DNA from: a virus
Lineage: Duplodnaviria > Caudoviricetes
Length of the DNA: 33,109 bases
IMG/VR virus record: IMGVR_UViG_3300032328_000054
Coordinates: 1-33,109 of that record
Reading direction: 5' to 3' (one strand)
The translations under genes and the position numbers were made by a program. Positions 1,939 to 7,534 of this stretch are shown here, in pieces (the first letter of the stretch is position 1; every line of letters starts with the position of its first letter). The notes beneath the pieces were generated by a model that did not search any database, was not told where the DNA came from, and saw only the letters and a list, made by a program, of their open reading frames with translations.

Positions 1939-1945
1939 AGCTTAA
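1932..1945. promoter_or_regulatory. operator-like palindrome 2
   Basis: GTAAGATAGCTTAA covering the -10 and +1 of the rightward promoter. Confidence 0.55.
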
Positions 1946-2181
1946 TGAAGAAAAAAGTGTTTACCGATAGCCAAATTATCGAGTTGCTGGGTGGGCCTAC
2001 CAAAATAGCCAAAATCTGCAAAATTAGCGTACCTGCGGTGTCTATGTGGAAAAACTCAGGTATTCCTGCCGATAAGATGGTTTATTTGGGGGCCTTGTTA
2101 GAACAGGAAAGCAAGGGATTAGTAACCCGCAAAGACTTATTTCCTGAAAGTTACCAGTTAATATGGCCTGAGTTGCGTTAA
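1945..2181 (+). CDS. Cro-like HTH transcriptional regulator
   Basis: IIELLGGPTKIAKICKISVPAVSMW...GIP HTH and C-terminal LFP...IWPEL; first gene of the rightward operon. Confidence 0.85.
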   Translation: MKKKVFTDSQIIELLGGPTKIAKICKISVPAVSMWKNSGIPADKMVYLGALLEQESKGLVTRKDLFPESYQLIWPELR

Positions 2182-2321: not shown

Positions 2322-2598
2322 ATTAGGGCTTGACCTAGCCCGCACACAGGCGTGATGATGCGGTAAAGGCCGTAAATACTTCAGAAGCGAAACGGCAGCA
2401 ATGCCCCATATTTTGCGGATAAATGAGCAAAAATTATGGAACTGTCCTATTGCCAAACGGCAGGGGAAACTGGGTAGTCTTGGTAATACATAGACCTGAA
2501 CAAGCAAAAGAACCCATCATTTATTTACAACCGATTTCCGAAACATCCGAACTCGAATAATTCATCCTATCTTCGGATAGGAGTATTACGCCCCTAAT
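2322..2598 (+). ncRNA. putative large multi-branched structured RNA, family not recognised
   Basis: Nested long-range helices ATTAGG/CCTAAT, GGCGT/ACGCC, AATACT/AGTATT, ATAAATGA/TCATTTAT, TGGGT/ACCCA; hairpins with GCAA and C(UUCG)G tetraloops. Confidence 0.6.
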
Positions 2599-3050: not shown

Positions 3051-3425
3051 GTGGATTTTGAAAAGTTCTGGATAAATTGGCCTAAAAAGGTCGCAAAGAA
3101 AAAAGCTGAAATTGCCTGGAAAAGATTGTCTGATCTTGAAAAGCGTGAAGCATTAGAAGCCTTGCCAAAACACCTTAGACATTGGCAACTTAAAAGAACC
3201 GAAATAGATTACATTCCGTACCCCGCATCGTGGATTAATGGCCTAAGATTTCAGGATGTTTTGGACATGACTCCAGCCAAAGAAAAGGTGGATAGGTCCT
3301 GGATGTTTAGCCAACAAGGTATTGAGAACAAGGCTCGTGAACTAGGAATACTGGGTAACGGGTACGATAGCTACGATACTTTAAAGAAGAAATGTATGAT
3401 GCGAATGGGTATGGAGATTGACTGA
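3051..3425 (+). CDS. replication protein, initiator C-terminal-type domain only
   Basis: FEKFW..WPKKVAKKKAEIAWKRL and YIPYPASWING.RFQD motifs characteristic of C-termini of phage replication initiators; GTG start with GGGGG RBS. Confidence 0.7.
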   Translation: MDFEKFWINWPKKVAKKKAEIAWKRLSDLEKREALEALPKHLRHWQLKRTEIDYIPYPASWINGLRFQDVLDMTPAKEKVDRSWMFSQQGIENKARELGILGNGYDSYDTLKKKCMMRMGMEID

Positions 3426-6515: not shown

Positions 6516-6872
6516 ATGAAAGACATTGAAGCATTTTCTCTGGCGTTACTTAATTCTGCAACCTGCGCTCATTTGCAGCATTGGCAGACTAAAAGCTATT
6601 CGCAGCACAAAGCCTTGGCAAAATACTATAACGCCGTCCCAGACTTGGTAGACCGGCTAGTAGAATCGTGGATGGGTAAGTATGGCCCAATAGGTGATTT
6701 TGAAGAAGAATTTGAGATAGAAAAAGACCCTATCAAATACTTTAAAGCGTTACAAAAGTATGTCAAAGAGAATAGAAAACACTTGCCAAAAGACACCGAA
6801 TTACAGAATACTATTGATGAAATTACCGATTTAATTGACTCTTTGCTGTATAAACTGCAACAACTCTCCTAA
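6516..6872 (+). CDS. ferritin/Dps-like four-helix protein
   Basis: HLQHWQT.SYSQH.AL...Y...D.LVE ferroxidase-like ligand spacing. Confidence 0.7.
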   Translation: MKDIEAFSLALLNSATCAHLQHWQTKSYSQHKALAKYYNAVPDLVDRLVESWMGKYGPIGDFEEEFEIEKDPIKYFKALQKYVKENRKHLPKDTELQNTIDEITDLIDSLLYKLQQLS

Positions 6873-7057: not shown

Positions 7058-7251
7058 ATTGCGGTAATTGCCAGTTTTTTCAAGGTACGCAGTTTGGCCA
7101 TTGCCGGCGTTACCCTGAAACAGTAACAAAACAAGCTGGGATGTGGTGCGGTGAACACCAAGTCGTGGTGCCGCCGCAGCCAATATTCACGGAATTGGCA
7201 GCCACTCCAGCACCTAAAAGGCGCAAAAAAAATGATACGACCGCTGCGTGA
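7054..7251 (+). CDS. small Cys-rich, probably metal-binding protein
   Basis: CGNC...CRRYP...WCGEH. Confidence 0.7.
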   Translation: MNCGNCQFFQGTQFGHCRRYPETVTKQAGMWCGEHQVVVPPQPIFTELAATPAPKRRKKNDTTAA

Positions 7252-7534
7252 TCGAATTGTTGTAAGACCCGTAGAGCGGGTTAAGAGCCAGGTGATTGAA
7301 GTCATCATGGATGAACTGCCTAACATCGGCGAGGTATTGGCCGTAGGTCCTGGCGAAATTGATAAAAAAGGCCGGTTAATTCCTAATCCTATAGAAATAG
7401 GGCAAAGAATTCGATTTGGGGGCGCGGAGGACTATCTGTCTTACCCTAGATTTGAGATAGATGGCGAGGAATTACTCGTAATGTCTTGGAAGGATGTCTG
7501 TTTTGTGGAGGCCGATCATGCCCAAAACCACTAA
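7232..7534 (+). CDS. groES: co-chaperonin GroES-like protein
   Basis: IRPLRDRIVV, GEVLAVGPG, G.RI.F, EIDGEELLVM...DV; true start probably 7232. Confidence 0.9.
   Translation: MIRPLRDRIVVRPVERVKSQVIEVIMDELPNIGEVLAVGPGEIDKKGRLIPNPIEIGQRIRFGGAEDYLSYPRFEIDGEELLVMSWKDVCFVEADHAQNH

Follow-up and report, generated by a model that had tools for sequence, protein, structure and literature searches.

So far, RNA priming of replication has been described chiefly in ColE1-type plasmids and in some mycobacterial prophages. ColE1-type replicons have an antisense RNA I that overlaps the 5' end of the pre-primer, need a G-rich stretch upstream of the origin for hybrid formation, and are marked by a persistent RNA-DNA hybrid, RNase H processing and dependence on Pol I. 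According to the parts of PMC5043065 and PMC6317783 considered here, the ColE1 pre-primer RNA II is a folded non-coding RNA, and in the former part the trigger of persistent hybrid formation is called speculative. RNA-based origins are also found in mycobacterial extrachromosomal prophages (Wetzel et al. 2020, PMC7157519), for which the part of that paper covered here contains no conserved fold or mechanism. On plasmids, the ARRPOF, GEBRO and PAGEV motifs of 223-349 nt lie in replication regions, one of them in a segment sufficient for Rep-less replication (PMC5737381, in part). In the ColE1 record NC_001371.1, G6 runs are found at 928-933 and 1175-1180 and an A5 run at 1193-1197, all on one strand. 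Masukata and Tomizawa are said to have found in 1990 that the upstream G run pairs with the template of the downstream run. No account of this pairing was found in the consulted parts of PMC3167613, PMC3770058 and 10.1101/2021.11.25.470029.

In our study, a stretch of 33,109 nucleotides (IMG/VR record IMGVR_UViG_3300032328_000054, called the window hereafter) was analyzed, which is a 33-kb record of a freshwater phage with a completeness rating of 96%. Judged by its homologues, the segment 2335-2620 is a conserved, uncatalogued, doubly pseudoknotted phage RNA. On a slight balance of the evidence, this RNA is probably a ColE1-like replication pre-primer, standing in place of the missing DNA-binding half of the initiator. 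Like RNA II, it would be a folded non-coding transcript replacing an initiator, with a proposed persistent RNA-DNA hybrid at its 3' end, and the want of an intact origin-binding initiator (five of five complete relatives, and the ORF scans of the window) is shared with ColE1-type replicons. Unlike RNA II, it has half the length, contains pseudoknots and has no sequence similarity to RNA II or RNA I; its mixed-sequence repeats are 52-60 nt apart, whereas the G runs of ColE1 are 247 nt apart, and the phage has an attenuator and a retained initiator C-terminal domain, whereas ColE1 has RNA I/Rop. As in the mycobacterial prophage origins (PMC7157519, in part), a non-coding RNA would replace the Rep protein of related phages, but those origins adjoin parABS and serve prophage maintenance, and no parABS pair was recognized in the phage of the window. 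From ARRPOF, GEBRO and PAGEV the RNA differs in having no Rfam match and in its phage, not plasmid, context. Betaproteobacteria-1 (RF02932) occupies the same slot in near-identical phages and also has co-varying end repeats, but its helices are different. We take this motif to have come from Weinberg et al. 2017. The main text of PMC5737381, in the part covered, does not contain its name.

The literature searched, with the supplements of Weinberg 2017 outside the search, held no description of RNA 2335-2620 and no function for Betaproteobacteria-1. Five contig names were without match in six supplementary files of Fremin 2023 (PMC10690425), files 1, 2 and 4 being outside the search; the candidates described in the part of that study considered here are 29-151 nt long and could cover pieces of the RNA.

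Gene content of the window

The window carries a cro-like gene, leftward exonuclease genes, P22-like head genes and a 124-aa ORF at 3051-3425. The features at the start of the early region are:

1932-1945, unstranded: palindrome of the TTAAG-N4-CTTAA type over the cro start, likely an operator, one of exactly two copies in the window
1945-2181, + strand: cro-like repressor gene, 78 aa (PHROG35, E 1.8e-12; Pfam P22_Cro, E 5.9e-6, below cut-off)

The protein binding the two palindromes (1932-1945 and 2701-2714) is likely to be Cro. No CI and no integrase were found in the phage of the window, and an integrase is also missing from five relatives rated 100% complete, in which the initiator model is matched over its C-terminal half only. 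Neither helicase, primase nor polymerase was found among the ORFs scanned, nor among the 48 that were scanned of the 70 ORFs of two complete relatives absent from the window; the annotation of the complete genome MW202674 is likewise without these three. GC skew tracks gene orientation and carries no independent origin signal.

Before the packaging genes of the window, 6516-6872 and 7151-7534 have matches to the starvation-inducible regulator family (PHROG858) and GroES (PHROG3188). In five related loci (L005, L010, L018, L021, L028), a PAPS-reductase-family gene separates cro from the attenuator promoter (PHROG424 in the two that were scanned). In L319 (1612-4957), the cassette of cro, attenuator and RNA is inverted relative to the two early arms, and a headless initiator gene is found upstream of it on the opposite strand.

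Promoter, attenuator and transcription

2186-2194, + strand: likely extended -10 promoter, TG-n-TATACT (from the sequence; RNA contigs start at 2210-2216)
2201-2320, + strand: attenuator-like RNA of type att1 (z -3.79, 0 of 200 shuffles as good)

An attenuator just upstream of the RNA had been part of the original prediction, and the attenuator-like element at 2201-2320, with its folding score and its co-varying leader and partner blocks, bears this out. The leader block 2205-2214 can pair with 2285-2294, and a long stem (2237-2256/2295-2314) is followed by U6. The promoter at 2186-2194 was not reported by a consensus promoter scan, which requires a -35, and a TATACT/TATAAT-like hexamer is present 5' of the attenuator in 63 of 66 cro-downstream intervals. 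Attenuator-like elements were found in 63 intervals, seven of the window's type and 56 of another (att2), and the leader and partner blocks co-change in both types. In C4/CI-type antisense attenuators, leader sites are complementary to the loops of a downstream stable RNA. We presume the element 2201-2320, which has no Rfam match, to be reminiscent of the P1 C4 and P4 CI immunity RNAs. The two attenuator-like types are unrelated and recombine freely with the slot RNAs.

Contigs from RNA runs cover part of the RNA in seven of seven runs (six studies), which were chosen for holding the stretch and whose contigs show neither strand nor level. Several contigs bridge attenuator and RNA, and in one run the sole contig on 12 kb is 2210-2515; stretches without RNA contigs say nothing about expression. 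Most contigs end at 2511-2558, 5' of the repeats, and since strain variation there can break contigs, these ends were not used as evidence. No intrinsic terminator was predicted 3' of the RNA, and a simple consensus scan showed no leftward promoter-like site over it, such as an RNA I-like transcript would use.

The RNA lies just after cro, as do the lambdoid nut and put sites (PMC8632103, in part), and may be a put-like processive antiterminator acting in cis or another leader that licenses the long rightward transcript. Like HK022 put, it would then be a cis-acting nascent RNA in a lambdoid early region; an essential, interchangeable, one-per-phage role would suit such an element, and no N or Q antiterminator was found among the ORFs scanned. 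This explanation is nevertheless quite unlikely. The RNA sits downstream of the attenuator that would have to be overridden, the genes behind it have their own operator-bearing promoter region, and the L319 cassette faces the other gene arm. Moreover, put has ~65 nt and two hairpins in the part of PMC8632103 considered, whereas the present RNA is four times longer (285 nt), pseudoknotted and placed behind an attenuator, and the repeats and the headless initiator described below would be left unexplained.

Extent and distribution of the RNA

2335-2620, + strand: structured RNA of family A (subfamily A1), ~285 nt (ends taken from relatives; 84 distinct modules; covariation)

The original prediction had placed the RNA at 2322-2598. 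In relatives with a Cro 91-99% or a 124-aa protein 73-98% identical, the conserved unit extends from 2335 to ~2620 whatever precedes it, so the predicted ends were wrong, the 5' end being 13 nt too far left and the 3' end ~22 nt short. The predicted segment folds better than its shuffles on the + strand (z -3.26, 1 of 200 as good) and less markedly on the - strand (z -2.36, 2 of 200), in agreement with what had been expected of it. For the true unit, nested folding gave only z -1.73 (8 of 200), with a score that cannot count pseudoknots.

The claim that the RNA is new was upheld by the comparison with Rfam, as there was no match at gathering and the four weak matches at E <= 10 are all outside 2322-2598. 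In Rfam 15, no match was obtained to known self-cleaving ribozymes, group I/II introns, GOLLD/ROOL or other families, and the homologues L144, L055, L147, L141, L273 and L304, distant family A members included, were also without a match. No sign of ribozyme activity, one option of the original prediction, was found. BLAST of the RNA against plasmids gave six matches, all with E >= 0.3 and over at most 14% of the query; its BLAST against annotated phages and that of family C (see below) against plasmids yielded chance matches or none. Scans with exact motifs returned close relatives and four chance matches, and nothing else.

A degenerate pattern from the 5' end of the RNA matched 113 viral loci, with two by chance. 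Most matches of a looser pattern were spurious, the real loci numbering 49 of 120 from metagenomes and 1 of 120 from genomes, and the sole genome match, a 2-kb contig in a Bacteroidetes bin, is too weak for naming a host. In all, 236 loci with a full-length module were collected, of which 234 were parsed into 84 distinct modules, 26 of the window-like subfamily A1 and 58 of subfamily A2. The 5' positions fixed by the search pattern are invariant by selection and were given no weight.

2423-2560, + strand: 45-codon ORF within the RNA, not a conserved gene

This ORF had been mentioned as a caveat to the RNA prediction, and the region could be kept for the encoded peptide, the folds being incidental. 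The reading frame is intact in 14 of the 26 A1 modules, which is what speaks for a peptide, but it is frameshifted in four and cut to 5-15 codons in eight, and the start codon is absent in all 58 A2 modules. With the helices kept, the peptide reading is refuted, and we assign it a negligible probability; the caveat, once checked, turned up no conservation of the ORF.

Fold and covariation

2336-2372, + strand: helix P1, with 2336-40/2368-72 (P1a) and 2341-44/2359-62 (P1b) around a GUAAA bulge, from the pair counts over 84 modules
2380-2500, + strand: pseudoknot 1, 2380-2384 with 2496-2500, within the loop closed by P7 (2479-82/2501-04)
2406-2439, + strand: hairpin P4 with a 10-nt loop (2417-2426), preceded by hairpin P3 (2394-2405)
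2419-2524, + strand: pseudoknot 2, P4 loop 2419-2426 with 2517-2524, adjoining P6 (2471-75/2512-16)
2565-2582, + strand: hairpin P9 between the repeats, with a cUUCGg loop (cUACGg in many A1 relatives; not UNCG in A2)

Six helices, two of them long-range pseudoknots, are kept by compensatory change across the 84 distinct homologues. In P1b all four pairs are kept in 84 of 84 modules, three of them with compensatory pair types; P1a and the GUAAA bulge are invariant partly because the search pattern demanded them. The five pairs of pseudoknot 1 are also kept in 84 of 84, in five sequence variants with three pairs changing on both sides, and they are 100% paired in the tool alignment of 31 rows. 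In pseudoknot 2, all eight pairs differ between A1 and A2 and yet are paired in 76-84 of the 84 modules. P4, P6 and P7 behave like P1b and pseudoknot 1, apart from one terminal pair each, and both sides change at four of the five counted pairs of P4 in the tool alignment. The family A RNA also has invariant unpaired bases.

Over 22 pairs in the MAFFT register of 31 rows, 99.0% of the cells are paired against 84.0 +/- 0.8 in shuffles, and controls in which the pairing was slid reached at most 43.8%. The covariation score for these rows and pairs is 0.432 against 0.142 in shuffles (0 of 500 as good), much of the covariation resting on the single A1/A2 split, and two of the five measures (those counting pairs or types) are not beyond the shuffles (42 of 500 and 466 of 500).

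All eight pairings for which the original prediction had named both arms are present in the window and fully paired where it had placed them, and their fate in the homologues varied. The homologues (84 modules) confirm 2471-75/2512-16, and they also keep 2419-26/2517-24 as a helix, but not as the nested closure of an inner domain, because it is a pseudoknot formed from a hairpin loop. The hairpins 2394-2405, 2445-2465 and 2565-2582 are visible in the alignments, though not part of the pair counts. The outer helices 2349-53/2588-92 and 2375-80/2582-87 and the hairpin 2359-74 are not retained (65% of cells paired, 456 of 500 shuffles as good), and the outermost pairing 2322-27/2593-98 is complete in only 3 of 26 A1 homologues.

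The exchange of UUCG and UACG loops in A1 and the kept G-U pairs point to an RNA on the + strand, as had been predicted. Covariation alone cannot separate RNA from single-stranded DNA, a point made by Weinberg et al. for plasmid motifs (PMC5737381, in part). The structure might act in the displaced DNA strand, as a signal for loading a primosome or helicase, in which case transcription would serve only to open the duplex. A DNA signal of this kind would have the same link to headless initiators. The loop exchange, the kept G-U pairs and the two long-range pseudoknots suit RNA, however, and the element stands behind a promoter and an attenuator and is present in RNA libraries, which makes the DNA reading highly improbable.

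Interchangeable RNAs behind cro

In near-identical phages, the slot behind the attenuator-like element holds one of five modules. Of the 66 cro-downstream intervals, 63 were classified, with module A in 19, B in 29, C in 11, E in three and F in one. Module C was identified as RF02932 (Betaproteobacteria-1) with 101.6 and 95.0 bits; it extends ~100 nt past the Rfam model and forms long-range pairings absent from it. The window RNA has no match to RF02932 at gathering (49.4 bits) or at E <= 10, and a profile cross-search of A against C was no better than shuffles. Modules A, B, C and F, which may share a deep fold, show no sequence similarity to each other by profile search, and separate sets of covarying helices are seen in C and in F. 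B and F are without an Rfam match. The family A RNA moves between phage groups and between attenuator types.

Family C is seen in L009 (3171-3370), L142 (1720-1950) and 19 non-redundant rows and ends in co-varying direct repeats. Families B (region of L002, 741-951) and F (L091, and L223, 2301-2537) are uncatalogued structured RNAs of ~200-240 nt, and the module F of the complete genome MW202674 is annotated there as tiny reverse-strand hypothetical genes. Slot type E (L023, 1950-2747) contains pyrimidine-rich hairpins, a G7-TA-G7 tract and a gene for a 208-aa HNH endonuclease, and a G-run route to an R-loop is conceivable for it.

A headless initiator downstream

3051-3425, + strand: headless initiator 'RepC', 124 aa (PHROG270, positions 178-261 of 383, E 1.4e-13)

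The original prediction had put the RNA where a replication initiator would normally sit. The O-like DNA-binding half is indeed absent, but the truncated initiator gene at 3051-3425 is present and had been missed, along with the exchangeable slot and the co-varying repeats. RepC has the C-terminal domain found in O-like replication initiators but no N-terminal HTH, and the window lacks the lambdoid O-like initiator/iteron origin, in which this HTH is joined to the C-terminal domain and iterons lie within the gene. It is a stand-alone family, as 228 of 228 ORF matches have at most 40 extra N-terminal residues, whereas long homologues bear an N-terminal HTH_36 or Phage_rep_O (HTH_36 in 8 of 15 full-length proteins); a 278-aa full-length homologue is found in Pseudomonas phage JBD68. 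No solved homologue of RepC was found by sequence. Its fold model has a pLDDT of 84, with a best structural match at Z 5.1 and the SPP1 G39P loader/inhibitor at Z 4.1, and its Atlas neighbors Phg_2220_C, DnaB_2, DnaT and gp59 (0.83-0.90) are leads only. The helicase-loading role proposed for RepC below is based on its homology to initiator C-termini.

A slot module is found upstream of 89 of 94 headless initiator genes and of none of 41 full-length ones, counted after removal of duplicates and of rows with less than 2.6 kb upstream, and with module models built largely from headless loci. Three of the 89 matches are weak (21-25 bits), and every positive locus carries one module type only. Among headless loci outside the model building, 9 of 10 also carry a module. 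In a model-free comparison of hand-picked loci (41 headless, out of the 94, and 37 full-length, out of the 41), an ORF-free gap of at least 300 nt lies upstream in 37 of 41 headless and 14 of 37 full-length loci, and a segment with z <= -2.5 in 26 and 8 of them, respectively. The full-length set comes from other lineages, and the contrasts between headless and full-length loci are therefore not independent. The slot type does not follow RepC: 80 of 157 pairs of RepC proteins with an identity of 95% or more have unlike slot types, and A and C, or A and B, occur even with the same RepC sequence.

Terminal repeats and AT-rich DNA

2540-2559, + strand: repeat copy R1, which co-changes with R2
2600-2625, + strand: repeat R2 (2600-2619) followed by an A5 run (2621-2625), the predicted hybrid site and primer end
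2626-2720, unstranded: AT-rich tract containing two palindromes, TAGG-N7-CCTA at 2674-2688 and the second operator-like copy at 2701-2714

R1 and R2 flank P9, are 52-60 nt apart across family A and change to the same letters. In A2, a module's own R1 and R2 give 157 of 190 matches against 122.7 +/- 4.4 for copies of other types (0 of 20000), and in family C the corresponding values are 164 of 187 against 135.8 +/- 3.7 (0 of 20000). The signal in A1 is weak, with only four types (13 of 16 against 7.0, 817 of 20000), and no clear co-varying repeat was seen in F or in B, the latter with only six distinct rows. A run of at least four A is found at the R2 end in 70 of the 84 modules, and 2335-2625 contains no G6 run.

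The two copies resemble each other and are not complementary, which implies one common partner for both. A search of the module and its flanks gave no consistent same-strand complement for the terminal block. The slot type is not tracked by any phage protein; RepC cannot be the partner, since pairs of nearly identical RepC so often differ in slot. The complement of R2, i.e., the template DNA strand, is a partner by construction. The mismatches between R1 and R2 favor pairing of R1 with this complement (17 against 3; 10 against 1 distinct events, p 0.012), counting G/A and U/C mismatches that R1 could wobble-bridge, an asymmetry which is confounded by the A-richer R2. In family C, the first repeat block has a pairing partner within the RNA and can thus be a folding switch, and the repeat block of family A may have an RNA partner like that of C. 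One repeat block of family C has two competing helices sharing one partner.

These repeats also bear on the possibility of a stand-alone early RNA acting in trans, as a scaffold, an anti-defence decoy or a ribozyme, in which they would be internal switches or protein-binding elements and the link to headless initiators would reflect shared clade ancestry. The compact double-pseudoknot fold with invariant unpaired bases, the movement of the RNA between phage groups and attenuator types, its presence in metatranscriptome contigs and the internal pairing of the family C repeat block would all agree with such a role. We regard it as unlikely, as it leaves unexplained why a single site takes only one of several unrelated folds in each locus, why the initiators there lack the origin-binding domain, and why the terminal repeats co-vary without an RNA or phage-protein partner; a terminator that would end such an RNA was also not among the intrinsic terminators predicted.

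Behind family A, the GC content drops from 0.45 to 0.27, and it falls to about 0.25 in all four families. An operator-like palindrome follows the module in 46 of 62 cases for A, 26 of 31 for B, 13 of 29 for F and 3 of 32 for C, with at most 0.12 expected per family. The tract 2626-2720 is likely the promoter region of the downstream genes, and the palindrome behind the RNA suggests that these genes are not dependent on the RNA as a leader. TAGG-N7-CCTA was seen in the 150 nt that follow modules of A (20 of 62), B (11 of 31) and F (10 of 29), and behind none of 32 modules of C.

Proposed mechanism

As the slot RNA lies upstream of an initiator gene without the DNA-binding half, it likely opens and primes the origin, and the idea of a primer gains comparative support from the homologues. 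From the anatomy and associations observed above, we infer the following course for the pre-primer. Transcription from the 2186-2194 promoter would read through the attenuator, which may set the frequency of the event. The 5' domain would fold and position R1. While the polymerase copies R2, R1 could pair with the exposed R2 template, P9 bringing the repeats close, and this pairing would nucleate a persistent RNA-DNA hybrid (R-loop) that opens the duplex at the AT-rich tract. RNase H may then trim the hybrid near the A run, after which the RNA would prime the host Pol I, and the 124-aa C-terminal-domain protein would help to load the host helicase.

Several observations stand against the pre-primer reading. 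Lineage confounds the headless contrast; a structured gap occurs in 8 of 37 full-length loci too; F and B are without clear co-varying repeats; neither a ColE1-like G-rich tract nor an RNA I-like antisense promoter was found; and two loci carrying the family A RNA, L284 and L329, have neither RepC nor a recognized helicase within 3 kb.

A wider proposal is that a large group of freshwater phages has split the lambda-O-type initiator between RNA and protein, so that any of at least four unrelated RNAs, the orphan Betaproteobacteria-1 included, would find and open the origin through capture of its own template by its repeat, the protein being reduced to a helicase-recruiting domain compatible with each of them. 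We put this forward tentatively, as possible but somewhat doubtful. If the pre-primer reading is true, a function would be given to an uncatalogued RNA family and to the orphan RF02932 together, and RNA-primed replication would be routine among abundant freshwater phages, which would have arrived at it several times through different folds. Natural single and double mutants for testing the hybrid trigger at RNA-primed origins would then be available in the co-varying repeats. Even if the primer reading is wrong, swappable ribozyme-sized RNAs tied to headless initiators still want explaining.

Family A loci in other gene contexts

Among the 73 family A loci, a headless gene was found within 3 kb in 54, flanks are short in 10, and neither RepC nor cro is present in nine. 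Of the loci without RepC and cro that were scanned, three, from other phage groups, have a DNA helicase gene downstream (one of them with a primase), and two have an HNH gene and ORFs of no recognized function. In L273, L304, L309 and L346, which belong to a different phage group, an A2 RNA with other leaders precedes a helicase gene; a primase follows the helicase in L273, and in L304 and L346 a ParB-like gene lies between the RNA and the helicase.
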